Source: Candidatus Bathyarchaeota archaeon (GTDB lineage Archaea > Thermoproteota > Bathyarchaeia > 40CM-2-53-6 > JALHTG01). Taken from it: a stretch of DNA of 64,000 bases. The stretch is from positions 627 to 64,626 of the forward strand of contig JALHTG010000108.1 of assembly GCA_022865705.1 (NCBI GenBank). The letters are read 5' to 3'. The position numbers and the translations under genes were made by a program. Of this stretch, positions 12,492 to 55,226 are shown piece after piece; positions within the stretch are counted from its first letter, which is position 1, and every line of letters starts with the position of its first letter. The notes under the pieces are model-generated. The model was not told the origin of the DNA, ran no database searches, and saw only the letters and a list, made by a program, of their open reading frames with translations.

Positions 12492-13004
12492 GAAAAGAAA
12501 AAGAGCAACTTAACGAATCGAAAAGATCTATCTAACTCTAGATTCTAGGCCAGGGCGTACAGCGTCCGCTAACGATCCCGTGTTCAGTGGATGGGAAAAA
12601 GGGGCGTTAGGGGATTCTTCCTCCAATCACTGAAATCAAAGTGTGCGGCGCGAGTGGTGCGCACAGACAATTCTGCCGCCTTCTAGACGAAGAATAAGAT
12701 TCCATCCAATACTAGGTGAGTCGTCCAACCCAGAAAAGCCCCGACCATAATCCATCTGATCTTTTTCAGCGATGTCAACGGCAATGCCAGCATGGCAAGC
12801 AAGATGAACGGGTAGACCCAGTAATGAAGAAGGGTCAACGGAAAGTATTCCGTTCTTAGTTCCCATCTGAACAAATCCCAAAACGTGAAGGGAACAACCT
12901 GGCTTGCTCTGACTTCCATTCGGAAAAGATGGTCTAGGTCTGGGAACTCCATCATAAACAAGACGAAAAGATAGAACAGTCTCTGAGGAGATCGTATTCC
13001 ACAT
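12492..13004. repeat. Copy A of a ~510-bp direct repeat (3' flank and C-terminal two thirds of a DUF457-like gene)
   Basis: Aligns by eye with 14643-15151. The gene-internal part is close to identical, and the 12492-12680 flank is more diverged. Confidence 0.85.
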
Positions 13005-14636: not shown

Positions 14637-14643
14637 GCGCGCG
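14637..14643. repeat. Alternating CG run, 7 nt
   Basis: Left boundary of repeat copy B. Confidence 0.9.
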
Positions 14644-15151
14644 AAAAGAGAAAGAGAAGCTTCACTAATCGAAGAGATCCACCTAGATCAGAACCTTACG
14701 TCAGGACATACAGCGCCCAATAACGATCCTGTGTTCAATGGGTTAGGAAAACGGGGTCGAAAAATCCTTCCTCCAATCACAGAAATCAAAGTGCCTGGCG
14801 CAAGTGGTGCGCGCAGACAATTCCCCCCTCTAGATGAAGAGCATAACTCCATCCAATACTAAGTGAGTCGTCCAACCTAGAAAAGCCCCGACCATAATCC
14901 ATCTGATCTTTTTCAGCGATGTCAACGGCAATGCCAGCATGGCAAGCAAGATGAACGGGTAGACCCAGTAATGAAGAAGGGTCAACGGAAAATACTCCGT
15001 TCTCAGCTCCCATCTGAACAAATCCCAGAACGTGAAGGGAACAACCTGGCTTGCTCTGACTTCCATTCGGAAAAGATGGTCTACGTCCGGAAACTCCATC
15101 ATGAACAAGACGAAAAGATAGAACAACCTCGGAGGGGATCTTATTCCACAT
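14643..15151. repeat. Copy B of the ~510-bp direct repeat, bounded on both sides by CG runs
   Basis: Starts at the last base of the CG run 14637-14643. Homology to copy A ends at 15151, one base before GCGCGCGC at 15153-15160. Confidence 0.85.
14830..15126 (-). pseudogene. Truncated second copy of the DUF457-like membrane protein gene (lacks the N-terminal ~75 codons)
   Basis: The 98-aa product is nearly identical to residues ~80-176 of the 12683-13213 product. Confidence 0.8.
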
Positions 15152-17910: not shown

Positions 17911-17926
17911 GGAGAAATGAAAATTG
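17911..17926 (+). promoter_or_regulatory. Shine-Dalgarno-like GGAG plus TTG start of the surface-protein gene, overlapped by a 4-codon mini-ORF (ATG AAA ATT GAA TAA)
   Basis: GGAG at 17911-17914 lies 9 nt upstream of TTG at 17924. The ATG at 17918 is out of frame and stops after 4 codons. Confidence 0.4.
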
Positions 17927-20900
17927 AATAAGAGAATAGGCGCTGCTTTCATAGTAATGCTATTTGCTTTAGGCATTGTTTCTGTTCCAGTATCCGCCCA
18001 CTTCACCTTAGGTGTACTGACACCAACATACGACTTCCATGCAAATGACTATGACCCACACGTGGCCGGTATCGTTGGATATGTCTGGCCAGGTGTAGGC
18101 TATGCTACAACTGCCACTGGCGCTGGTGGCCTTGCGGCACCACAGTACCCAGGCTACCAATCACCGTACCCCGGAGGAAACCCAGGAACAAAGGGCACAG
18201 GTTATGCTGGGCTCTCTGGTCCTTACAGTACAGGTTTCTATCCGCCGGGATGGTACCAGCTAGAGGCGAACAACTACGCGCCCTTCGGAGCGATATTGGC
18301 GAACACGATCAAGCCGAGTACACCCCCAGTCTTCGCCAGCACATGGTGGGGCAACCCGACCGTTGAAGGATTGCCGATCGAACTTGGCCCTGATAGTAAG
18401 CCAAACTCGCGCGGTGATCTAGTATTCGCTTTCAACGCTACCAAGGGCTTCTACGCCAACTACACGGAGCTCTTCTTATGGGTTCCAGCGGAGTTCAAGG
18501 GCATCACCTCCTCCAAGGTTGTGGCGTCATGGACGAACAACTACGACCAAATCCTAGTGAAGAGAGGCGATCTGGACAGGAACATTTACGGCAAAGGAGA
18601 CGGCTCCACCGACTACTGGACCAGCATGTATGCACCTGGTTGGACCTGTGTTAGGGTCCACGCAGACCGAGGCTACTACTTCAACAACACTCAGAAGGAT
18701 CCCGCACTGAAATCGGACATATTCTACTACCCACGCGTCATGAACTTCACCGATAAGGCTGAGTGGTACTATCTGGCCCTTAACGATGTAACCGCCCCAG
18801 TGGTCTCCGGACGATACTTCTTCAAGGTAGGCTTCAGGGCCCCGAACATGACCATCAATGTCGCCACGGGAATCCCGCAGTACTTCATTGATGGTTCCAT
18901 GTACTTCGAGTTCATGGACATTCGGAACTGGCCTGTTCTGACTGTGAAAGGTGAGGTGGATCCTGCCATCCTTACGGGCTTCATTAAGTTTGGTGGTTGG
19001 AACACTACGCTTTACGGCCAGAACGTAACCTTGCCAGGTAGAGTCAGAGCTGTAGGCATAGCTGATAATCCGTACACTGGTGTGTCCCTCAACAAGCCTG
19101 TAGAGGCTCGAGGCTACTTCAACCAGACCGCGAAAGGTCACTATGAGGTTGAAGGAGTAGCACCTGGTACGTACGATATCTATGCTTCATGCGCTGGCTA
19201 TCCTGAGCAGAAGATCGCTAGCGGAGTAAAGATCCAGAAGGGTCAATCCTATCACATTGATGGGTATTTGACTCCTGGAGCCGTGATTCATGGTACGGTG
19301 TTCTCGAAGTGTGGTACAGGCGAGATTCAGTGGGGCGCAGAGCAAGCGATGAAAATAGAGATCTACGCAGCTGCTAAGACGGCCGCTGCAGACGTTGAGA
19401 CTGTCAAACCTAACTCCAGGTTCAGTCCTCCGGCTACGGCCAGCGATGTACTCTACGCGTATGACTCTGGTTATCTCACAAAGTCAGTGAAGATGCCAGT
19501 AACCTGGTCACCAGTGCCAAACCCGACGAAACTCGGCGAGCCCACCTACGTCATCGGCCGACAGTACAGCGCGGCTACTGTAGCAAGTGGTGCACGCGAC
19601 TACTCGTACACATCCCCCAGCTACGCTGCCTCGAACAGCTTCCAATTCCCATGGTACTTCCCGTACTTAGGGAAGGGCTACACTGAGGTAGGCTACGACA
19701 GTGCGAACGCCAAGATAGGCCACGACCCGATGGGTGTTGGACCTCTGCAGAGCTGGCTCACCTCTTCCTCTCTCACCTACTTCACATGGAAGTTCGGTGA
19801 TCAGGGCAAGTACGGTGCGCCAAGCGACTGGTCTGGAATGGTTCCAGAGTACAACGCAACATGGACCAACGGTCTACCAGCTGGCCAATACTACACCAGA
19901 GCCTGGACTCTGCAATACGTGCAGACCCAGCCTGACGGAGTAACCTTTGAACACGCCTCATTCGTGATAGCTCCATCAGAGTTCCCAGGAGACATCAACG
20001 TCCCATTCGACATAAGGAAGGGTAGCATCGTCAAGAAGACGATACACTTCCACGATGTCCCAGGAACACTCACAGAGCTAGGCATTCACGGACTGCCGAA
20101 GAGCCACTTCAGGCCACACGTCGATGCTTACCACTCGACCGTGAAGGATGCTGAGATAAGAATCAGGATCTACGTGCGAGACGCAACTTCTTCAGCCTTC
20201 GCATGGGGATACTCAGACAACATCCACGCCACCGACGGCCCAGTCACGTCTTCCATAAAAGGATACGATGACAAGGGCTACGCTGGAAGAAGCTACGGAA
20301 TACCTGCGGGCGACTACAAGATCGAGGACAGGGTTGAAGGCTTCGTCCAGGAACCGAAGGACTTCTGGGTATCAGTCGGCCTATGCGGAACCATTATCGA
20401 AGTAAGCAACCATGTCTACAGAGGAGTTCGCTTCAACATAACAATATTCGCTAAGGACTGGGAGCATCCGACCGTCGACCAGACTTGGAAGTATAACAAC
20501 GATGTGGTCTACGTCGGAGTCTACAAGGACGGCGTGCTGCAAGGTGTGATGTGGACCTGGACTGTAAAGTCCTACAAGCCCGTCGTACTCAACATCACTG
20601 ACTGGTTCAGCGACAGAATCATAGCAGGCGTCTGGGCCTGGGACACAGGACTCTACGAGTTCAAGGCCTTCGTCTACGGCTATGTTCAGAAGAAGCCTGT
20701 TCAGGTCTACGCCACACGTGGCGCCCTGGCGGACATTCTGATCAAGCTGACCGAAGGAGCTCAAATTCCAGTGACGATGAAGTTCAAGCATGAATCGATC
20801 TTTGAAGACTTCCACTGGAACGCATCGATGAGAGTCCGAGTATTCGACGACGCGAACAACCTTGTCGGCGAATACATGACGTCTGACCCATGGCACGGAT

Positions 20901-21775
20901 ACCTAGACTATGACGCGACCACAGGCATAACCAAGCAATTCACCGACTTCACAGTGAAAACAGGATACTCCAAGCAGAAGAGCCCCTTGGACGACAAGGA
21001 GCTCAACTACGTGCCGAAACCAACTACAACGCTTCAGTTCACGATCTGCGGTACACCTGACACGCGATTCTGGTGGTACGACAGCTCAACGGACCCAGCC
21101 GCATCGGACTACGATCACCCCAGCCCAGCATTTCCGACCTTTGACCTAAGCTGGCATGCATACAGCAAGACTCATCTCGTCGACGCGCCCTACGGCATAG
21201 ATGCCGATCCTAACTACAAGGGTGCGTATCGACTCGAAGTAGATGTTGTCCCATGGTACAACTGGAAGTCATTCTTCCCAATGCCATTGGGAGGACTCTA
21301 CGGTGAGTCACCGAAGTACGTACCGGAGAACCACCTAGGACCCTGGGTACTCAACTTCCCGATAACTGTGCCCGGAATGCACCTAGGCGGAAAATCCTCA
21401 CTGTACTTCGAGCTTGACATGCGAGGAAGCACAGCTGGTCTAGTGACAGGCTACACATGGTGTGACGACTGGCGGCCAACATCGTGGGCCGGAGTCGTGT
21501 TCACCGGAGCCGACGGCAAGGTCGTCGAGCGTGTGCCAACCAAGGACGGACAATACTTCGCATATCTGCCGAGCGGACAACTCAGCATGACCATAACGCA
21601 CGGTGGATACGTAAGCCCGAAGGTCCCAGTCTACGTCACTGACGGAGGCTTCGGCCTAAGAAACGTTCCATTGGAACGCGCGAACGTACCCATCCCAGAG
21701 TTCCCAGTAGCAGCAGTGGTTCTAGCATTCTCGCTAGCAGCGTCTCTATTCATACTACGGCGCAGAAGAAAGTAA
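17924..21775 (+). CDS. Giant secreted cell-surface (S-layer-like) protein with a PEF-CTERM-type archaeosortase sorting signal
   Basis: 1283 aa. Signal peptide AAFIVMLFALGIVSVPVSA. Carboxypeptidase-regulatory-like segment GHYEVEGVAPGTYDIYASCAGY. At least a dozen N-x-S/T sequons. C-terminus PIPEFPVAAVVLAFSLAASLFILRRRRK. Confidence 0.8.
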   Translation: MNKRIGAAFIVMLFALGIVSVPVSAHFTLGVLTPTYDFHANDYDPHVAGIVGYVWPGVGYATTATGAGGLAAPQYPGYQSPYPGGNPGTKGTGYAGLSGPYSTGFYPPGWYQLEANNYAPFGAILANTIKPSTPPVFASTWWGNPTVEGLPIELGPDSKPNSRGDLVFAFNATKGFYANYTELFLWVPAEFKGITSSKVVASWTNNYDQILVKRGDLDRNIYGKGDGSTDYWTSMYAPGWTCVRVHADRGYYFNNTQKDPALKSDIFYYPRVMNFTDKAEWYYLALNDVTAPVVSGRYFFKVGFRAPNMTINVATGIPQYFIDGSMYFEFMDIRNWPVLTVKGEVDPAILTGFIKFGGWNTTLYGQNVTLPGRVRAVGIADNPYTGVSLNKPVEARGYFNQTAKGHYEVEGVAPGTYDIYASCAGYPEQKIASGVKIQKGQSYHIDGYLTPGAVIHGTVFSKCGTGEIQWGAEQAMKIEIYAAAKTAAADVETVKPNSRFSPPATASDVLYAYDSGYLTKSVKMPVTWSPVPNPTKLGEPTYVIGRQYSAATVASGARDYSYTSPSYAASNSFQFPWYFPYLGKGYTEVGYDSANAKIGHDPMGVGPLQSWLTSSSLTYFTWKFGDQGKYGAPSDWSGMVPEYNATWTNGLPAGQYYTRAWTLQYVQTQPDGVTFEHASFVIAPSEFPGDINVPFDIRKGSIVKKTIHFHDVPGTLTELGIHGLPKSHFRPHVDAYHSTVKDAEIRIRIYVRDATSSAFAWGYSDNIHATDGPVTSSIKGYDDKGYAGRSYGIPAGDYKIEDRVEGFVQEPKDFWVSVGLCGTIIEVSNHVYRGVRFNITIFAKDWEHPTVDQTWKYNNDVVYVGVYKDGVLQGVMWTWTVKSYKPVVLNITDWFSDRIIAGVWAWDTGLYEFKAFVYGYVQKKPVQVYATRGALADILIKLTEGAQIPVTMKFKHESIFEDFHWNASMRVRVFDDANNLVGEYMTSDPWHGYLDYDATTGITKQFTDFTVKTGYSKQKSPLDDKELNYVPKPTTTLQFTICGTPDTRFWWYDSSTDPAASDYDHPSPAFPTFDLSWHAYSKTHLVDAPYGIDADPNYKGAYRLEVDVVPWYNWKSFFPMPLGGLYGESPKYVPENHLGPWVLNFPITVPGMHLGGKSSLYFELDMRGSTAGLVTGYTWCDDWRPTSWAGVVFTGADGKVVERVPTKDGQYFAYLPSGQLSMTITHGGYVSPKVPVYVTDGGFGLRNVPLERANVPIPEFPVAAVVLAFSLAASLFILRRRRK

Positions 21776-21966: not shown

Positions 21967-22773
21967 CTACAAGATCTTCAGTAGTTCTTCCTCGAACTTT
22001 CTTGCGAAAACCTCAGGATCCCTTTCCGGCACTGTACTGGTTATCTTGTTTCCGTTGAAGATGACCTCTAAACCGCAGAGCAAGGCCTCATCCAGCATCC
22101 TTGGCAATCCATCTTGCGAAGTCATACGGATGAGCCGCCTATGCCTAGCGTAAAGCTCAGGCATTTTTTCCTGAGGCATAAACGGTATCACTTCGACATT
22201 AGGCAAGTCGATCTTGTGATCTGCTGGGCTGGCCGCGTTTCCTATTATGGTTATCTTCTCCTTAGGATGCTCCTTGGCGCGATTCAAGATCCAGTCCAGT
22301 CGATATATCCTAGCGCTATCATCTCCACCTGGGCAATAGTAGAGCGTATCCCTCTCAGGCCGTAAGCTATCCCTCACCTTCTTGAATTGGTCAACGTTTA
22401 TCGGAAAAGGAAGAGCTGCACCCTTCTTCCCAACAAATTCCATCAGATGAGGCGACGTGTAGAAAGCTAGTTCGCATGCGTAAACTACGAACCTCCAAAA
22501 CAGTTTCCGGAAACCCCTCTCATCCGCATACCTATAGGCGTCGCTTCCCACAAAGTGAACAATGGTCTTCTTCCTCAAGGCCTCTGCGGCTGCCAAGTAG
22601 CGACTCGCCGTTTGGAGGTGCGCACCGTAGACCACATCAATCCCTCTCAGTTTCAAAGGGTTGGGAATCTTCACGTCCTCCGTATACTCGACTTGGAGTC
22701 CTCTGCTTCTCAAAGCTTTCACGACAACTTCGTTGTTGCAGCCCCTGGCACCGACCATAAGTATCCTCACCAT
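21967..22773 (-). CDS. Glycosyltransferase-like protein (GT-B-like, weak)
   Basis: 268 aa from the internal ATG at 22773 (MVRILMVGARG), with GGAG about 10 nt upstream. The general two-Rossmann layout is only loosely recognisable. Confidence 0.4.
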   Translation of the reverse strand: MVRILMVGARGCNNEVVVKALRSRGLQVEYTEDVKIPNPLKLRGIDVVYGAHLQTASRYLAAAEALRKKTIVHFVGSDAYRYADERGFRKLFWRFVVYACELAFYTSPHLMEFVGKKGAALPFPINVDQFKKVRDSLRPERDTLYYCPGGDDSARIYRLDWILNRAKEHPKEKITIIGNAASPADHKIDLPNVEVIPFMPQEKMPELYARHRRLIRMTSQDGLPRMLDEALLCGLEVIFNGNKITSTVPERDPEVFARKFEEELLKIL

Positions 22774-22910
22774 GGCTCGTTCTCCACTCTCAAGTCGCTC
22801 ATAGTTCATCATGAGGAAAAGGTTAATCGTTCTTTCAAGAGGCATGCATCTTTACAGATTCAGAAATGGTCTGGATCCCTCTAGAATGAGAACACTTGAT
22901 AACAGATACC

Positions 22911-22922
22911 AGCGCGCGCCAC
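22911..22922. repeat. AGCGCGCGCCAC, left copy of an identical 12-mer direct repeat
   Basis: Intergenic, 132 nt from the vapC stop. Confidence 0.9.
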
Positions 22923-23053
22923 TCCAAGTTGGCATTTACGTGTGGATATGTGTGTGTTCAATTGCTGTGGGCCGATTGCTTGCTTTCAATTGTCAAATGT
23001 GTTGTTGAGGTATGGCTTTCGGTCTTCTTGGACGTATCCAGCTACCATAGTCC

Positions 23054-23494
23054 TTAAGTAGATATTTTCTCAGGTTTGGTTTCTCTTAGGAGTTGGGTCG
23101 CGCAGTATTGTCTTGTCTTGATGAGAAGGTCCCTGTCAGCGGTAATCAGTGTGGCATCATGCTCTTTGGTGAGCGCGACATACATGGCATCATAGAACGT
23201 TACTTTCAACTGCTTTGATATCTCGAAGCTTTTTCCTAGCAGCTTGGTGTCAGCGAAGCTTCTCAACTCGATGCCCAAATTCAGGAGTGATTGGAAAGCG
23301 CTTGCTGAGCTGTCTGATGTAAATGAAGGATGTTTTGTCAAGACGTTTCCAATCTCATAGATGACGATTAGTGGCGACGAAAGGACTATTTTTCCGGCTG
23401 AATGCAAATCTCGGATTTGAATCGCCTTATCGGAATCCTCCTCGGTGATGTACCATTTGGCGACAACCGAGGCATCTATGACCATATTTTTCAT
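23054..23494 (-). CDS. vapC: PIN-domain toxin VapC
   Basis: 146 aa. VIDASVVAKW N-terminal Asp, FYDAMYVALT, ITADRDL. Confidence 0.8.
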   Translation of the reverse strand: MKNMVIDASVVAKWYITEEDSDKAIQIRDLHSAGKIVLSSPLIVIYEIGNVLTKHPSFTSDSSASAFQSLLNLGIELRSFADTKLLGKSFEISKQLKVTFYDAMYVALTKEHDATLITADRDLLIKTRQYCATQLLRETKPEKIST

Positions 23495-23727
23495 CGTGAA
23501 TTCCTCGCGTCCCTGATCACTTTGACGCTGTCGAATTTGACGCCTTTCGTCTTCTCTCTCAATTCGTCCATGATTCTGCAGGCTTGCTTCCTTTTTTCGA
23601 CCTTAACCCTCTCTTCTATTGCTTGCCTCAGGTAGTCTGCCCAGTCCAAGTCTAGCCTGTTCATATCTTCCTTCAGATCTTTGGGGACGCGGATCGAGAC
23701 AACCTCCATGGTGAGCGACCTCACCAC
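23491..23727 (-). CDS. vapB: VapB-type antitoxin (RHH-like)
   Basis: VSIRVPKDLKEDMNRL...ADYLRQAIEERV. 4-nt overlap with vapC. Confidence 0.7.
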   Translation of the reverse strand: MVRSLTMEVVSIRVPKDLKEDMNRLDLDWADYLRQAIEERVKVEKRKQACRIMDELREKTKGVKFDSVKVIRDARNSR

Positions 23728-23787
23728 GATACATATTTGCTTACAAATAACGTTTTCTCAGAGCGTTTACCAAAAAGTATACGGTAA

Positions 23788-23799
23788 AGCGCGCGCCAC
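23788..23799. repeat. AGCGCGCGCCAC, right copy of an identical 12-mer direct repeat
   Basis: Intergenic, 61 nt from the vapB start. Confidence 0.9.
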
Positions 23800-23845
23800 A
23801 GCCCCACATTCGACATAATATCCAATAGACCCGATGCACTAGCTC

Positions 23846-23853
23846 GGCCGGCC
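23846..23853. repeat. GGCCGGCC palindrome (context tcGGCCGGCCGTagca)
   Basis: Read directly. Immediately precedes the start-less IS110 N-terminal reading frame. Confidence 0.95.
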
Positions 23854-23858
23854 GTAGC

Positions 23859-24235
23859 ATAGGTATTGATGTGGGTAAGAGGCGTTGCCAGGCATATGTT
23901 ATAGATGAGCATGATTCGATTGTAGACGAATTCGAGTTCGAGAACAGCTTCGAAGGCCTGTCGTATCTTACTGGAAAAGCGAAACCGGGCCCTGCGAAGC
24001 CTGCAGTTGGATCCGGTGGATAGATGCATTCTCAACACTCATCTACGCCACTTGGAATGTCTGAGACGCGAAACGGGGATGCTTGATTCGAAGATAGCTG
24101 CAAAGGCTAGTGAAAGCCAAGAAGCCAAGCTGTTGATGAGCTTCACAGGAATAGACTATCGCAGCGCGATGCTCACAACATCAGAGATCGGAGACATCTC
24201 AAGATTTCCCTCGTCGAAGCATCTTGTCGCGCGCG
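23859..24235 (+). mobile_element. Decayed IS110-family transposase gene (N-terminal piece, internal deletion or frameshift, part of the C-terminal domain)
   Basis: The frame beginning right after GGCCGGCC (23846) reads IGIDVGKRRCQAYVIDEHDSIVDEFEFEN, an IS110 N-terminal pattern without a start codon. A second frame reads LLMSFTGIDYRSAMLTTSEIGDISRFPSSKHLVA (Transposase_20-like) and loses homology at the CG run 24228-24235. Confidence 0.7.
24228..24235. repeat. Alternating CG run, 8 nt, followed by TCCACTCCA
   Basis: IS110 homology ends here. The flank resembles the flank of the 22911 site (CCACTCCA). Confidence 0.9.
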
Positions 24236-24339
24236 TCCACTCCACAGACATGTGGCATATCTCTTAGGGAAATGAGTCCGGGCTTCCTCCTTTCCATCGC
24301 CGTGAGACATGGCGAGTCTTGTTTTCTCTTGATTTTCCC

Positions 24340-24747
24340 CTATGGAGTGTGACGTTTGAGGTCATTCAGCTTCAGAGTCCTGATATGGGTTCTGGCTTTC
24401 TGTGTCAAAGGTTCATCTTCAGTCACCAGGGTTAGGTTTCTTTCTCGAGCATAGAAAACGTACGATGCATCGTAGAAGGTTAGCTTCAGCCTTTGAGCAG
24501 CGTCCAATATGGCTTCTTCATGGCAACCGACTTCGAGCACCTGCATTATGTTGAGTACTTGCTTCACTAGTCTAACGAGCTTCTTTGATTCGTCATTGGT
24601 GAGCCTCTTGTGTAGTGTGGATTCCTTCCAAAGAACGTTCCCCAGTTCGTATCTCGTCAGTTCCAAGGTGTTGTTTCCTAGCAGGGTTTCCACGGTGTTC
24701 TCTTTGATGGCTTTGAATATTGCCGAGGAGTCGAAAAGGAAGCTCAC
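24340..24747 (-). CDS. vapC: PIN-domain toxin VapC
   Basis: 135 aa. LFDSSAIFKA, FYDASYVFYA, VTEDEPL. Confidence 0.8.
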   Translation of the reverse strand: MSFLFDSSAIFKAIKENTVETLLGNNTLELTRYELGNVLWKESTLHKRLTNDESKKLVRLVKQVLNIMQVLEVGCHEEAILDAAQRLKLTFYDASYVFYARERNLTLVTEDEPLTQKARTHIRTLKLNDLKRHTP

Positions 24748-24983
24748 CTTTGCTCCCTGTCCTCTCTAATCGATCTTACCACAGTTCCAACAGTGATCTT
24801 TGCGAGTGTAGGTTCCAGGCTCTCGATCTCGCTCCTGATTCTCTCAACCTCTTTTCTCTTCACTTCATCTTCGATGGCCTTTCTTAGCAACTTGGAAGGT
24901 TTGATGCCAAGTCTCTGGAGTTCTCCCTTGAGCGCGGCGGGGATCTTCACGGATACGGTCACATACTTACTCATGGTTGCCAC
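24744..24983 (-). CDS. vapB: VapB-type antitoxin
   Basis: 79 aa. VSVKIPAALKGELQRLGIKPSKLLRKAIEDEV. 4-nt overlap with vapC. Confidence 0.7.
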   Translation of the reverse strand: MATMSKYVTVSVKIPAALKGELQRLGIKPSKLLRKAIEDEVKRKEVERIRSEIESLEPTLAKITVGTVVRSIREDREQR

Positions 24984-27779: not shown

Positions 27780-28304
27780 TTGGGATACATGCTCTTCAGA
27801 ACTTACGGGCCGGCCGGCCATCTGAAACGGCTCAGCGGACGCGAAGCCCACCATAGAAGAAACGTGAACCATGTCATCAGCAAGAAGCTGGTGGTGAAAG
27901 CGAAAGACACTGGGCGCGCAATCGTCCTGGAAAAGCTGAAAGGCATACGCGGCCAGACAACGGTTAGGAAAGCTCAGCGTCACCGCCACAGCTCTTGGGG
28001 ATTCGGGCAGATGAGAAACTTCATCGAATACAAGGCAAGACTCGCTGGAACTCAAGTCGTGGCCGTGAATCCGAGAGGAACCTCCCACATATGTCCTCGT
28101 TGTGGGCCTGAAGCAAAGCAGAACCGTCCGACAAGAGATCGATTCGAATGTGTAGGATACGGCTTCGCTGGGCCTGCGGACTACATAGCGAGGTTAAACA
28201 TCGCCGCAAGGGGCGCAGTCAGTCGCCCTATCGTTCCGAGGACCTTTTTGGAGCATCAAGCTCACCTCAGGGACAAGCCAACAATTTCAATCGTTGGTAG
28301 CTGA
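27780..28304 (+). mobile_element. TnpB (IS200/IS605 OrfB) C-terminal fragment, degenerate
   Basis: HVISKKLVVKAKDTGRAIVLEKLKGI (RuvC-II Glu), SHICPRCG zinc-ribbon half, ADYIARLNIAARG. The second CxxC is degraded (ECVGYG). Homology begins at the GGCCGGCCGGCC site at 27808. The N-terminal two thirds are absent. Confidence 0.7.
27808..27819. repeat. GGCCGGCCGGCC (two overlapping GGCCGGCC)
   Basis: Read directly. TnpB-fragment homology begins here. Confidence 0.95.
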
Positions 28305-37552: not shown

Positions 37553-38656
37553 TTGATCAGAGTTCTGTTCCTAGCAGCCCCATTCAAGAGCCGATTCATA
37601 GAGCACATGACAGAATTCTTCTCAAACGAAATATGCTGGAAAATGGTGATTTCAGATAATCCTCCGAGCAGATATCGCACAAAGAGTTTGAAGGAGAATA
37701 TTGTAGACAGGGTTTTAGGAACGAGGAAGCTGGCCCAAGCAGCAAAGGAATTCAAACCTGACGTAGTCTATACAGACAACCTGTCATATAGCGGTCAAGC
37801 GGGAATAATCTCAGGTCTTGCAAGCATCAGAGCCCCGCACATACTTCATCTTAGAGGCAACTGGTGGGAAGAATATTTGGCATGGCACCATCTTGCCCCA
37901 TGGCACAAGAGGATGCGAGGCACACCATTCTACTTCTACTATTGGTTCGCCATAGCATCTACCGCTCTTGTCACGCCCATATGCCAGTGGCTTGAGAGAC
38001 GAGTGAAGCACTACCTCCCATGGAAACCGACTGAGGTAGTGTACCAAGGTGTAGATCCGAGACTCTTCTATGAAGAAGAAGGATTCGAAGTAGAACACCC
38101 AGCAGCAGCTATCATACAGAACCATACAGTGTACCCGAAAACACTAGGTCTTCTGACGTTTAGAAGAGTCATAGAAAAGGTACCGGATGTTCACTTCTAC
38201 ATAACGACCGGAGAAAGACGGAACCAACCGTACCTCCCGATGGTCGAAGAGAGATTCGAAGGTATGAGAAATGTTCACTTTGTGGAGAATGTGTCTTGGC
38301 CAGATGGGGTTCGGAGACTGCTCTCAGCCTGCGACTTCTACATACTGGCCTCAGGCCTAGACTGTTGTCCGACAACGGTACTTGAAGCCTCGTTAATGGA
38401 AAAGCCCGTACTGGCCAGCAAGGTAGGGGGCGTGCCTGAGATAGTGGCGGAGGGAGAAAGCGGGTGGACCATAAGCAATAAGGATGTGCAAGGTTGGGTC
38501 AGAAAGATTGAGCTTCTGGCCACTGACAAAGGCCTGGCTACGACCATAGGCAAGAAAGGCAAAACATGGGTTTCAGAGAGGTTCACCTGGGAGAAGATAA
38601 GTCGCCAAGTAGAGCAAATCTTAACGCGTGCAGCATCGTCTAGACAGTTGCTGTGA
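37553..38656 (+). CDS. Glycosyltransferase, GT-B fold (family 4-like)
   Basis: 367 aa with TTG start. C-terminal CPTTVLEASLMEKPVLASKVGGVPEIV (E-x7-E-like region). Confidence 0.75.
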   Translation: MIRVLFLAAPFKSRFIEHMTEFFSNEICWKMVISDNPPSRYRTKSLKENIVDRVLGTRKLAQAAKEFKPDVVYTDNLSYSGQAGIISGLASIRAPHILHLRGNWWEEYLAWHHLAPWHKRMRGTPFYFYYWFAIASTALVTPICQWLERRVKHYLPWKPTEVVYQGVDPRLFYEEEGFEVEHPAAAIIQNHTVYPKTLGLLTFRRVIEKVPDVHFYITTGERRNQPYLPMVEERFEGMRNVHFVENVSWPDGVRRLLSACDFYILASGLDCCPTTVLEASLMEKPVLASKVGGVPEIVAEGESGWTISNKDVQGWVRKIELLATDKGLATTIGKKGKTWVSERFTWEKISRQVEQILTRAASSRQLL

Positions 38657-38686
38657 ACAAATCAACGCCTTAGAGAGTCTCTTGAC

Positions 38687-39826
38687 ATGGAACTATTTCC
38701 TAAGAACCTGCTAGAGATACTTGTCTGTCCAATGTGTGGCTCTGAACTCCAACTGGAAATTCTCTCACCTGAGCTTAGAGATGGGGTGTTGTTCTGCAAG
38801 AGCAATCATTGGTATCCCGTCATCAATGGATTGCCAAAAATCTTGATTGGTGAGCTCAGAGGAAACTACTCCGACTTCGTCAAATCATATGATAAATGGT
38901 TCACGTCCAAGGGATTGCAGCCAGCTGAGCATTCCAGTGAGAGAAAGGAGAGCAAGCAAGTTCAGGAGACTTTTCGCGAAAAATGGATGACAAAGGACGT
39001 AATGGGCATAAGCGACTCTTCACCGTACAAGAAATTCATGCGCAACTGGATGCTCAGAAAGTATGGGTGGGAGAGCGAACCAAAGTTCGAGAAAGCACTG
39101 AGCAACAGGAGAATGATCCTGGATGCTGGAACCGGTCTCGGAAGAGAGGTAATCAACCTAGCCAAGGCTGCAAGACAGTCAAGCGTGGTTGGCATAGAGT
39201 TCTCTGACTGTGCCGCGAGCGCTATGAGGAACGTTTCATCACTAAGCAATGCCTACATCATACAGGGAGATCTTTTGAGACCACCGCTAAAAGAGGAATC
39301 ATTCGACTTCATCCTGAGTGAAGGAGTACTACACCATACACACAACACTGAGGAAGCATTCAGAAAATGCTGCAGACTTCTGAAGATTGGTGGTGAGTTT
39401 GCCTTCTATATCTACAGAAAGAGAGGGCCCGTTAGAGAATTCACAAATGACTATTTGAGAAACATCATGCAAAAAGTGTCTTCCAAGGAGGGCTGGGAGA
39501 TCGCAGAAAGAATAACAAGATTCGGTAAGGCCCTGTCAGACATCAAGGCCAAAGTCAGGATTCCTGAGGACATTCCTGAACTTGGAATAACGGCCGGAGA
39601 GACAGACATTCATCGTTTCATCTACTGGAATTTCTTGAAATGCTTCTGGAATGACGGATTGCCGTTTGAAGAGAACGCGATCATAAACTTTGATTGGTTT
39701 GTACCAGAACATGCTCACAGACACTCAGAGCACGAAATCAGAAGCTGGTGCCTAAGAAATGACATTGAAATCGTATGGTTCAACGCTGAGGAGTCAGGAT
39801 ACAGCGTTAGAGGCGTAAAGAAGTAA
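38687..39826 (+). CDS. Trm112-like zinc-ribbon domain fused to a class I SAM-dependent methyltransferase
   Basis: LVCPMCGSEL...FCKSNHWYPVINGLPKIL. SAM motif I ILDAGTGLGREV. Confidence 0.7.
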   Translation: MELFPKNLLEILVCPMCGSELQLEILSPELRDGVLFCKSNHWYPVINGLPKILIGELRGNYSDFVKSYDKWFTSKGLQPAEHSSERKESKQVQETFREKWMTKDVMGISDSSPYKKFMRNWMLRKYGWESEPKFEKALSNRRMILDAGTGLGREVINLAKAARQSSVVGIEFSDCAASAMRNVSSLSNAYIIQGDLLRPPLKEESFDFILSEGVLHHTHNTEEAFRKCCRLLKIGGEFAFYIYRKRGPVREFTNDYLRNIMQKVSSKEGWEIAERITRFGKALSDIKAKVRIPEDIPELGITAGETDIHRFIYWNFLKCFWNDGLPFEENAIINFDWFVPEHAHRHSEHEIRSWCLRNDIEIVWFNAEESGYSVRGVKK

Positions 39827-55206: not shown

Positions 55207-55226
55207 CAAGTCGCGCGCGCAAGTCG
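55207..55226. repeat. CAAGTCG-CGCGCG-CAAGTCG (CG run flanked by a 7-nt direct repeat)
   Basis: Read directly, in the divergent intergenic region between the amidotransferase and aminotransferase genes. Confidence 0.9.

Follow-up and report, generated by a model that had tools for sequence, protein, structure and literature searches.

The window, that is, the whole stretch of DNA that was analysed, comprises 64,000 nt of the MAG of a Candidatus Bathyarchaeota archaeon (Bathyarchaeia) with a genome of 2.17 Mb, which is designated G000 below. The locus of interest contains two vapBC gene pairs, insertion sequence (IS) remnants and a set of short palindromic sequences. As stated in the original prediction, the 12-mer AGCGCGCGCCAC is present exactly at both of the positions given below, in each case on the plus strand, the two copies enclose only the genes vapB and vapC, and the third, related site downstream of them proved to be real. 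The features of the locus are as follows:

22867-22910, plus strand: left-end stump of an IS3-type element, 44 nt, ending exactly at the left 12-mer
22911-22922, no strand assigned: left 12-mer AGCGCGCGCCAC, with a copy of the genome-wide (GC)4 palindrome as its core at 22912-22919
23054-23494, minus strand: vapC-1, PIN-domain toxin gene (PF01850, E=1.5e-11)
23491-23709, minus strand: vapB-1, gene of a 72-aa antitoxin according to the ORF listing, overlapping vapC-1 by 4 nt
23788-23799, no strand assigned: right 12-mer AGCGCGCGCCAC, a (GC)4 copy and strain-level breakpoint
23846-23853, no strand assigned: palindrome GGCCGGCC, member of a second iterated family and strain-level breakpoint
23858-24227, plus strand: remnant of an IS110-family transposase gene (PF02371), truncated at both ends
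24228-24235, no strand assigned: third GC run CGCGCGCG, the exact end of the IS110 homology, followed by TCCACTCCA
24340-24747, minus strand: vapC-2, PIN-domain toxin gene (PF01850, E=7e-7)
24744-24974, minus strand: vapB-2, gene of a 76-aa antitoxin, according to gene calls in the loci L146-L151, with a weak CcdA-like Pfam match

Both gene pairs have the predicted type II architecture of VapBC systems, in which a PIN toxin gene lies behind a small antitoxin gene with an overlap of 4 nt. An identical VapC-1 protein is encoded on four contigs from other samples, and vapB-1, for which no Pfam match was obtained, appears among the gene calls of the loci L103 and L105 as a gene of 72 aa that precedes vapC. 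VapC-1 and VapC-2 are distant paralogues with 31% identity (BLASTP). That the two vapBC modules arose as paralogues together with the flank carrying the motif was rejected, since their 3' flanks cannot be aligned except for CCACTCCA and the VapC proteins share only this low identity. Exact-protein lookups with the GT protein, VapB-2 and three IS-adjacent ORFs yielded no match, nor did a search for the GT protein among genome contigs, and an Rfam search of the locus gave no match at E<=1.

The IS3-type stump is 93% identical to positions 5559-5602 of contig C85 in genome G001, the coding DNA of which is only about 72% identical to that of the window genome, and the counterpart in G001 runs on into an OrfA-like HTH frame (MPHRHWIAEEKIRIVLESL...). 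The IS110 remnant has lost about 337 nt internally, at 23992-24013, and is homologous to C20:1690-2250 and C71:139-276; the homology to C71 stops at window position 24228, and this junction is common to L146-L151. At the position of the remnant the loci L149 and L150 carry a DEDD_Tnp_IS110 gene of 288-291 aa. To judge from their sequences, the IS110 and IS3 elements beside vapBC-1 are dead stumps. The heptamer CCACTCC is found directly 3' of a GC run at only two places in the genome, namely at the left 12-mer and at the site at 24228.

A comparison with closely related strains located the breakpoints at this locus. L103 corresponds to window positions 22560-23796 at 96% identity and continues, after a degenerate CGCGTGC, with 338 unrelated bp; it retains vapBC-1 and the same left junction, at which the left copy of the 12-mer is kept with one substitution (AGCGCTCGCCAC). 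The match of L149 and L150 to the window extends as far as position 23845 and is lost at GGCCGGCC. In these two loci the sequence before the IS110 stump reads TTTT-CGCGCGCGC-CGAC-CGGCCGGCCG-TAG, and both the spacer and the left neighbour differ from those of the window. A single junction of L149 thereby contains both kinds of palindrome one after the other. Same-genus genomes reach an identity of no more than about 72% in their coding DNA, and their orthologous spacers were too divergent for such a comparison.

The 12-mer has no copies in the window other than these two, five in the 2.17-Mb genome, and none in any of 100 dinucleotide-preserving shuffles. Its core GCGCGCGC, referred to as (GC)4, is the most frequent 8-mer of the genome, with 346 sites or 12 times the number expected from composition. 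It is 53-fold enriched in spacers, and 70% of its sites are intergenic, compared with roughly 16% of the genome. The sequence logo reads (T)A-GCGCGCGC-T(A), with conservation ending at +/-2 nt, and the length of the GC run varies from 6 to 13 nt around a dominant length of 8 nt. Tandem, convergent and divergent spacers contain the motif at the same density, and its distance to gene starts and ends shows no peak, by which a promoter or terminator element was ruled out. The sites are over-dispersed and clustered in accessory stretches. Their left and right flanks are independent of each other, without target duplication and without extension of the palindrome; flank repeats of at least 6 nt occur at only 3 of 744 runs, and neither direct nor inverted flank repeats are in excess. 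GC runs carry substitutions between strains of 96-99% identity. In a survey of 105 genomes of the order, 13 were classified as motif-rich and 92 as motif-poor; most genera of family f2 have the motif as a lineage trait, with counts ranging within one genus from 0-10 up to 83.

Several candidate identities of the free motif were rejected. It is not the terminal part of a MITE or of another longer repeat, as nothing is conserved beyond +/-2 nt, and not an excision footprint retaining a target duplication, as flank repeats are scarce. A remnant of the inverted-repeat tip of an IS was dismissed as well, because CA follows the run at 20 of 321 sites, which equals the random expectation. Likewise, a link to a C5-methyltransferase of the kind associated with HIP1 was discarded, since PF00145 is absent from G000 and present in only one of the 13 motif-rich genomes.

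The abundance of the motif changes the reading of the repeat around vapBC-1. That two identical 12-mers at a distance of 0.9 kb are unlikely to arise by chance holds against random sequence, but not among copies of a motif with biased flanks. For two motif sites, the probability of a same-strand identity over 12 nt or more is 0.033 per pair, and for the 158 neighbouring pairs within 3 kb this amounts to about five expected cases, of which four were observed, the vapBC pair included. Because GCGCGCGC is the commonest 8-mer of the genome and has biased flanks, 12-nt pairs of this kind are to be expected in about this number. Accordingly, the two 12-mers are ordinary copies of (T)A-GCGCGCGC-T(A), the four additional identical bases are coincidental, and the pair is explained by the abundant motif. 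Short exact repeats that flank genes in such genomes should be checked for their genome-wide word frequency before they are read as att sites.

What is less ordinary is the position of the motif with respect to homology breakpoints. Endpoints of intragenomic homology lie within 8 nt of a motif in 18.5% of cases, compared with 1% for random positions and 2% for shifted controls. When the ends of the main IS5-type subfamily were left out, 134 of 1127 endpoints (11.9%) still met this distance, compared with 2.3% for the control, which shows a 5-fold enrichment of the motif at homology breakpoints. Individual cases include a 516-bp duplicate that is capped by GC runs missing from the source copy, and the site C103:20513/20523, where a run belonging to neither of them joins two unrelated homologous segments. 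The motif marks the junctions of DNA modules that assort independently between strains, and vapBC-1 is one such module, with the truncated IS3-type end to its left and a strain-variable segment to its right. With respect to the proposed cassette, it is correct that GC-only palindromes edge independently assorting blocks, but the 12-mers are not private ends of a cassette. According to the original prediction, it would be refuted if the 12-mer belonged to a longer high-copy repeat scattered at random; this applies by half, since the repeat is high-copy indeed, but the motif is shorter than the 12-mer and its placement relative to gene and fragment boundaries is non-random. If the link between motif and junctions holds, the positions of the motif can be used to predict where these MAGs vary between strains at junctions and where their assemblies break.

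An IS5-group element of about 1.13 kb was found in association with the motif. At least 20 copies are present in the window genome, and the element encodes a single transposase with DUF772 and DDE_Tnp_1 domains. The copy on C107 is frameshifted, its two halves matching PF01609 (E=5.4e-25) and PF05598 (E=1.4e-5), and intact transposase frames of 335-360 aa are present in the genomes G024, G030, G097 and G100. The core inverted repeat is CAGCTTCTTGC(A/T)AAACT, with variants; the outer edges of the core repeats lie 1105-1128 bp apart (17 loci, two of which are duplicate fetches), and the total length including the GC caps is 1118-1143 bp. The ends of the element all adjoin GC runs in G000, G024, G030 and G100.

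A comparison of a filled with an empty site was provided by a single pair. The empty site in L152 reads ...CAGCA-GCGCGGGC-GGATT... and the filled site in G000 reads ...CAGCA-GCGCGCGC-[IS]-GCGC-GGATT..., so that a GC run of 8 nt stands against 8+4 nt. The L152 allele, the run of which carries a substitution (GCGCGGGC), may represent a scar left by excision instead of a virgin target. Moreover, the GC arms of the IS copies range from 4 to 9 nt in length, with a sum of 12.4+/-0.8 nt and a negative correlation between the two arms (Spearman -0.60, p=0.022; re-pairing p=0.016). Together, the filled and empty pair and the constant arm sum of about 12 nt support a specific insertion of the IS5-group family into the motif, with a probable duplication of about 4 bp (GCGC). 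Empty sites of the G100 insertions were sought in G024, where no match spans a junction. An IS copy inside an IS110 copy (C20/C71) has to be mentioned in this context, as the uninterrupted copy in the window has no GC run at that point; this insertion fits GC-run termini of the element better, unless the fragments were already capped by the motif. The IS was detected in 5 of the 13 motif-rich genomes and in 4 of the 92 others (odds ratio 13.8, p=0.0013). Since no IS copy was seen in the remaining 8 motif-rich genomes, and two IS-bearing genomes have few motifs, the IS is not the sole cause of the motif and its junctions.

The second palindrome belongs to a family of the form (T)AC-GGCCGGCC-GT(A) with 88 sites, 62% of which are intergenic, and it acts like (GC)4 at junctions. 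A search for a mobile element carrying or targeting GGCCGGCC found none. Its interpretation as an IS terminus was abandoned, because the repeats that start there are paralogous genes of cellular type, coding for a TBP paralogue and an L7Ae-type protein. The sequence CGGCCGGCCG is enriched only in the window genome, with 47 copies against at most 9 elsewhere, and its numbers do not follow those of (GC)4. A common cause of both palindromes was rejected on this ground, and (GC)4 and GGCCGGCC do not co-vary across the 105 genomes.

These data lead us to favour, with moderate confidence, an explanation in which the two 12-mers are ordinary motif copies at module junctions, the IS5-group family targets the motif, and the traffic of its copies shuffles the modules. 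IS copies would repeatedly enter and leave motif sites, thereby shuffling and truncating the modules between them. Recombination between IS copies residing at different motifs could join unrelated flanks, while excision would leave a break with GCGC on both ends, the precise resealing of which would restore one motif. Alternatively, resection or the capture of a foreign fragment before resealing may place an arbitrarily cut fragment beside the motif. A motif-specific IS alone does not explain such fragments, and the step of repair and filler capture would have to be postulated in addition. If this link holds, it offers a testable mechanism by which the flexible genome of Bathyarchaeia, an abundant and uncultured sediment lineage, would be built from small modules, with an octamer palindrome that sits at strain differences in gene content and beside cut-off, dead mobile elements serving as the landing site of an IS5-group element.

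A serious though clearly less probable alternative is a dedicated DNA-joining or cassette-recombination process that makes or uses the palindromes, the IS5-type elements merely exploiting the resulting sites. DNA ends would be cut at, or would acquire, self-complementary GC tracts, so that any two of them could anneal. Such a process would accommodate the arbitrarily cut fragments capped by GC runs that their source copies lack, the joining of unrelated segments through a run of neither at C103, the variable run length of 6 to 13 nt, the independent flanks without target duplication and the tandem of different palindromes at one L149 junction, as well as the 8 motif-rich genomes without the IS and the same behaviour of GGCCGGCC, which has no associated IS. 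However, no candidate enzyme was identified, the missing co-variation of (GC)4 and GGCCGGCC argues against one shared host mechanism, and both the (T)A...T(A) preference and the dominant 8-nt length resemble a recognised site and not untemplated addition; IS-linked repair can furthermore cover most of the junction types. In a more speculative form, some Bathyarchaeia would possess an undescribed end-joining or cassette-exchange system in which ends are given, or cut at, lineage-specific tracts, here (GC)n and GGCCGGCC. Iterated palindromes would then be the scars of joins in which any two ends can anneal in either orientation; these scars would delimit modules that can be exchanged, for example TA pairs, and an IS5-group element would have become specialised in landing on them.

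It is unlikely that the motif is a functional or structural element of the host, for instance the binding site of a dimeric protein or a tract prone to form Z-DNA or cruciforms, and that its link to junctions arises because accessory spacers tolerate both motifs and rearrangements or because the tract is fragile. The palindrome with its symmetric TA flanks, its strongly intergenic location and its status as a lineage trait shared by most f2 genera are in line with such a function, and alternating GC is the classical Z-DNA-forming sequence and provokes deletions. On the other hand, the motif shows no preference with regard to gene starts or ends and no difference between spacer types, it is over-dispersed and concentrated in accessory stretches, its runs carry substitutions between strains of 96-99% identity and its counts vary from 0-10 to 83 inside one genus; the breakpoints lie exactly at the run, with a 5-fold lower value for the local shifted control, and the link to a C5-methyltransferase is absent.

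An interpretation of the GC runs as the termini of the IS5-type elements, with the free motifs as their scars, appears quite improbable. The self-complementary GCGCGC would make the two ends direct repeats; by slippage from one to the other the IS would be lost, with a single run remaining. This interpretation would supply a generator for new motif copies, and it is favoured by the association of the IS with motif-rich genomes, by the retention of GCGCGC at both ends of subfamilies with transposases of only 41-46% identity, by the insertion into the IS110 copy described above, and by 7-nt direct repeats flanking the complete C107 copy and the solo run at window position 55207. It is at odds with the 13 of 14 complete copies that show no duplication outside the runs, as target duplication is an invariable feature of this family of DDE transposases. 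Further points against it are the anti-correlated arms with their constant sum (8+4, 7+5, 9+5), the free motifs without flanking duplication (repeats of at least 6 nt at only 3 of the 744 runs), the 8 motif-rich genomes without the IS and the run that is already present in the empty site of the one filled and empty pair.

Finally, the original suggestion of a mobile vapBC cassette inserted between the 12-mers as att-like ends or as a target-site duplication is hardly tenable: although an exact 12-nt direct repeat surrounds vapBC alone, the right 12-mer is a true strain-level breakpoint and cassette arrays typically carry TA pairs, an identity of 12 nt between motif copies is within the expectation of chance, the left 12-mer bears a substitution in the 96%-identical strain with the same left junction and adjoins the IS3 stump instead of a duplicated target, ORFs and Pfam matches between the 12-mers include only vapB and vapC and no recombinase or transposase, an empty site with a single 12-mer was found neither among same-genus genomes nor in public assemblies, and in other genomes no GC run lies within 1.5 kb of the most similar vapBC homologues (59-65% identity); the motif does not belong to the vapBC pair as such.

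The motif, its IS and the modules can be compared with known systems. Integrons contain attC sites of 55-140 nt with paired R and L boxes at the 3' ends of their cassettes, together with an IntI integrase and attI; TA pairs are frequent among their cassettes, and they have been reported in archaeal MAGs. The variable region described here resembles them in that small modules, often TA pairs, are separated by a recurring palindrome. In contrast to integrons, the recurring element measures only 8-12 nt and lacks the structure of attC, the orientation of the modules is mixed, many of them are gene fragments, and the motif does not travel with vapBC in other genomes.

The IS5 element of E. coli duplicates 4 bp of the palindromic target CTAG/YTAR. 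The element found here agrees with the IS5 group in its size of about 1.13 kb, its DUF772 and DDE_Tnp_1 domains, its terminal inverted repeats and the putative duplication of a short palindromic tetranucleotide, but its probable target would be GCGC within the 8-nt (GC)4. With such a target inside (GC)4 every copy looks GC-capped, and a precise loss would restore the motif.

REP/BIME sequences and the IS that target them (IS1397 and ISKpn1; IS110 elements of the IS621/IS1111 type) share with the Bathyarchaeia motif that both are high-copy palindromes of spacers, into which a specific IS family inserts and which are associated with rearrangement junctions. REP/BIME palindromes are 20-40 nt long, imperfect, able to form a stable hairpin, often clustered and accompanied by a cognate RAYT transposase. 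The Bathyarchaeia motif, in contrast, is a perfect palindrome of 8-12 nt without the orientation and cluster structure of BIMEs, its specialised IS is a member of the IS5 group and not of IS3 or IS110, and the host is an archaeon.

The HIP1 sequence of cyanobacteria occurs both inside and outside coding DNA and is linked with a C5-methyltransferase for CGATCG, whereas 70% of the GCGCGCGC sites are intergenic in a genome without a PF00145 methyltransferase and the motif sits at homology breakpoints. HIP1 (GCGATCGC) is a GC-rich 8-nt palindrome that represents the top octamer of its hosts, is lineage-specific and has an unknown generator (PMC6604393, PMC6105098). The octamer GCGCGCGC of the Bathyarchaeia is likewise a perfect 8-nt palindrome, the top 8-mer of its genome and specific to a lineage.

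The identical 12-mer AGCGCGCGCCAC was confirmed at 22911-22922 and 23788-23799, both on the forward strand and with no further copy in the window, and it did not occur in 100 dinucleotide-preserving shuffles of the window. As stated in the original prediction, the two copies enclose only a vapB and a vapC gene (vapBC-1):

23054-23494, minus strand, vapC (vapC-1), PIN domain
23491-23709, minus strand, vapB (vapB-1)

The third site, CGCGCGCG-TCCACTCCA, was likewise confirmed at 24228. The 12-mers are two copies of a genome-wide motif, the (GC)4 palindrome GCGCGCGC, and are not a property of the vapBC pair. When all pairs of GC runs with a length of 8 nt or more are compared, same-strand identity over 12 or more bases occurs in 3.3%, and since 158 neighbouring motif pairs lie within 3 kb of each other genome-wide, about five 12-nt brackets are expected; four were observed, including that of vapBC-1. 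The argument that such a pair is very unlikely by chance therefore falls once the motif is known.

The window represents positions 627-64626 of contig C94 in a fragmented MAG (G000) with 6% contamination, whose assembly comprises 2.17 Mb in 117 contigs with 49% G+C. The motif is the most frequent 8-mer of this genome, with 346 sites versus approximately 29 expected from base composition. Its logo, (T)A-GCGCGCGC-T(A), shows no conservation further out, and the motif is thus not the tip of a longer repeat. According to a gene map approximated by longest ORFs, 70% of the sites are intergenic, with spacers making up about 16% of the genome, which corresponds to a 53-fold spacer enrichment. The density is equal in convergent, divergent and tandem spacers, and the sites do not cluster at any particular distance from the starts or ends of genes, which argues against a role as promoter or terminator. 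The sites are over-dispersed (variance 3.4 versus a mean of 1.3 per 10 kb), and 23 of the 33 sites of the window fall within the accessory stretch at 8-28 kb. This stretch also contains another dead mobile-element piece, a 174-aa open frame (27780-28304, plus strand) beside a GGCCGGCCGGCC site at 27808; the annotation of the identical contig L146 lists this frame as the C-terminal fragment of a Cas12f1-like/TnpB protein (PF07282). A urocanase gene of the window assigns it to Bathyarchaeia. The 3' ends of tRNA genes (…GGGATTTGAACCC…CCA) were found 0-10 nt from several motif or insertion sequence (IS) sites, namely at C82:8493 and C49:10461 of G000 and in two other genomes (L002, G024:C343 ~180-215; L133, G100:C3 ~1083310), and tRNA-proximal spacers seem to be favoured places for these palindromes.

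The original reading of vapBC-1 as a cassette with att-like ends was borne out only in a broader sense: the 12-mer does not belong to the vapBC pair, but its right copy is a strain breakpoint and all motifs of the locus are junctions. No recombinase is encoded between the two copies, no Rfam family matched the vapBC-1 region, and no GC run was found within 1.5 kb of the closest vapC homologues (59-65% identity) in other genomes of the order. Directly left of the left 12-mer, positions 22867-22910 match, at 93% identity, a sequence in another genome of the genus that shares only about 72% identity with G000 in coding DNA. The matched sequence forms the left end of an IS3-type element, which continues there into an OrfA-like frame; the homology to the window ends exactly at 22910. 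A 96% identical contig from another sample, L103, retains the glycosyltransferase gene, the sequence left of the motif and vapBC-1, with the left 12-mer copy reading AGCGCTCGCCAC. At the right 12-mer it changes to 338 bp unrelated to anything in G000 (positions 1-338 on the reverse strand of the contig, lying to the right in window orientation). This replacement of the IS110 region contains three occurrences of the word GCGTGCACC in a stretch of about 150 nt; the related words GCGTGCGC and GTGCGCGC are also spacer-enriched in G000.

A second palindrome, GGCCGGCC, is located at 23846-23853, 46 nt past the right 12-mer, and is followed by GTAG and a 5'-truncated remnant of an IS110-family transposase gene. 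Two further contigs, L149 and L150, contain a fuller IS110 gene copy beside the same second vapBC pair (24340-24974, minus strand); their match to the window extends down to 23845, where it breaks off. They carry the junction sequence TTTT-CGCGCGCGC-CGAC-CGGCCGGCCG-TAG and wholly different DNA to the left. The 3' homology of the remnant stops exactly at the third GC run at 24228. Relative to L149 and L150, the remnant has lost about 337 nt at 23992-24013. The two matching IS110 blocks have a 22-nt overlap, suggesting that the deletion arose by recombination between short direct repeats; no GC palindrome was involved. The sequence CCACTCCA follows the left 12-mer directly (22923-22930) and recurs after the third site (24237-24244), these being the only two such flanks among all GC runs of the genome. 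The two vapC 3' flanks are otherwise unalignable and the VapC proteins 31% identical, and the common flank may either have arisen by coincidence (at about the 1-5% level) or derive from a junction that both sites once shared. Since every motif at the locus is a junction, vapBC-1 is, as judged from the sequence comparisons, one module of a mosaic with GC-only palindromes as seams, the modules being 96-99.9% identical between strains internally yet having different neighbours.

The association of motifs with junctions is genome-wide. A palindrome (GCGCGC, CGCGCG or GGCCGGCC) is located no more than 8 nt from 18.5% of the 1356 intragenomic BLAST homology endpoints, compared with 1% of random positions and 2% of endpoints shifted by 60-300 nt. 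When the ends belonging to the main IS5-type subfamily were excluded, a palindrome was still present at 134 (11.9%) of 1127 merged endpoints, versus 2.3% in the shifted control. A 516-bp duplicate at 14643-15151 is capped by GC runs on both sides, which its source copy at 12492-13004 lacks, and at C103:20513/20523 two unrelated homologous segments are joined via AGCGCGCGC, which is part of neither. As a separate observation, a surface protein gene (17924-21775; 1283 aa, PEF-CTERM-like hydrophobic tail) has a second copy of its 3' 1.3 kb and about 50 nt downstream at C93:8446-9728, with 83% identity.

A multi-copy element, collapsed at numerous contig ends, interrupts the IS110 copies of contigs C20 and C71. 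All 22 of its ends adjoin a GC run, outside of which the adjacent base (A, then C) follows the free-motif logo. A complete, frameshifted copy at C107:46508-47650 encodes a DUF772 and DDE_Tnp_1 transposase, which assigns the element to the IS5 group by domain content and size. The same GC-capped ends characterize a second subfamily (transposase 46% identical), a 126-bp MITE (C103:20692-20817, C55:18785-18910 and C2:1487-1612) with the inverted repeats of that second subfamily (GCGCGC-GAGGCTGTTGCAGTAAT...), and homologues with 65-85% identity in G024, G030 and G100; G097 encodes an 85% identical transposase.

The GC runs might be part of the IS itself, as the copy inserted in an IS110 gene sits where the uninterrupted copy of the window has no GC run. 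The favoured interpretation is that they are the target, with the motif serving as landing site, because of an empty allele, a constant arm sum and the lack of duplications outside the runs. In the ~99% identical strain sequence L152, the end of C108 is joined to the start of C39 without the IS (...GAGCCAGCA-GCGCGGGC-GGATTATTTTCG...), with one substitution in the run that speaks for the alternative, and the filled allele of G000 reads ...CAGCA-GCGCGCGC-[IS]-GCGC-GGATT.... This single filled/empty pair thus has a run without the IS and 8+4 nt in the filled site, which agrees with duplication of 4 bp within an 8-nt target. The arms of 14 complete or paired copies measure 4-9 nt, sum to 12.4+/-0.8 and are anti-correlated (Spearman -0.60, p=0.022); re-paired arms gave an equally small variance of the sum in just 1.6% of trials. 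None of the copies in G100 is flanked by a duplication outside the runs. To our knowledge, DDE transposases of the IS5-type family always duplicate their target, and duplication of a palindromic tetranucleotide is the normal habit of the IS5 group, IS5 itself duplicating CTAG/YTAR. The element in G000 probably duplicates its target as well.

At least 16 copies of AGCGCGCGCT were detected in 13 of the 105 genomes of the order, which cover most genera of one family, two genera of another and G000 alone in its own genus (83 copies versus 0-10 in other members). The IS family is present in five of these 13 genomes versus four of the 92 others (odds ratio 13.8, p=0.0013); its occurrence follows that of the motif, for which it is neither necessary nor sufficient. 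No C5 DNA methyltransferase tracked the motif. The second palindrome family, (T)AC-GGCCGGCC-GT(A), comprises 88 sites, including 23846-23853, is 62% intergenic and 12-fold spacer-enriched, and is likewise found at breakpoints of homology and between strains. The family is practically confined to G000, as CGGCCGGCCG is enriched only there (47 copies versus at most nine in 104 relatives), and the two palindromes therefore have separate histories. Repeats starting with GGCCGGCC are not IS elements; they are paralogous cellular-type genes. Extra copies of a TATA-binding-protein paralogue and an L7Ae-type gene occur on short repeat-rich contigs (C41:~570-1160, C51 and C58:~38430-39270), their homology beginning right after GGCCGGCC.

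Starting from the observed motif, its placement and its coincidence with breakpoints, a mechanism can be proposed. IS copies residing in different motifs would provide portable homology, and unrelated flanks would become linked at a motif when such copies recombine. Excision of an IS would leave a break with GCGC on both ends, whose direct closure would regenerate a single motif. If the break were closed only after resection, or with a captured fragment, the motif would come to lie beside a piece of a gene or IS that ends at an arbitrary base, and a fragment capped by runs on both sides could also result; such outcomes are seen in the IS3 stump, the IS110 stump and the 516-bp duplicate. Two rare, clean insertion-type events do not fit neatly into this scheme: the solo run CAAGTCG[CGCGCG]CAAGTCG at 55207-55226 in a divergent spacer of a glycan gene cluster, one of only three of 744 GC runs with a flanking direct repeat of at least 6 nt, and an occupied IS site in C107 surrounded by the repeat GTTTGTA, which has the same length of 7 nt. 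The several hundred motif copies may stem from an undescribed joining process that creates GC tracts, a reading that retains a substantial probability.

The motif system is not an integron array, and a full-text literature search did not turn up any account of iterated (GC)4 palindromes from archaea. In appearance, the motif comes closest to the cyanobacterial HIP1 octamer, but HIP1 differs by its spread through coding regions and its cognate methyltransferase. The bacterial REP/BIME palindromes with their REP-specific insertion sequences are closest in working, although they differ from the motif in length and structure and have RAYT as a feature of their own.
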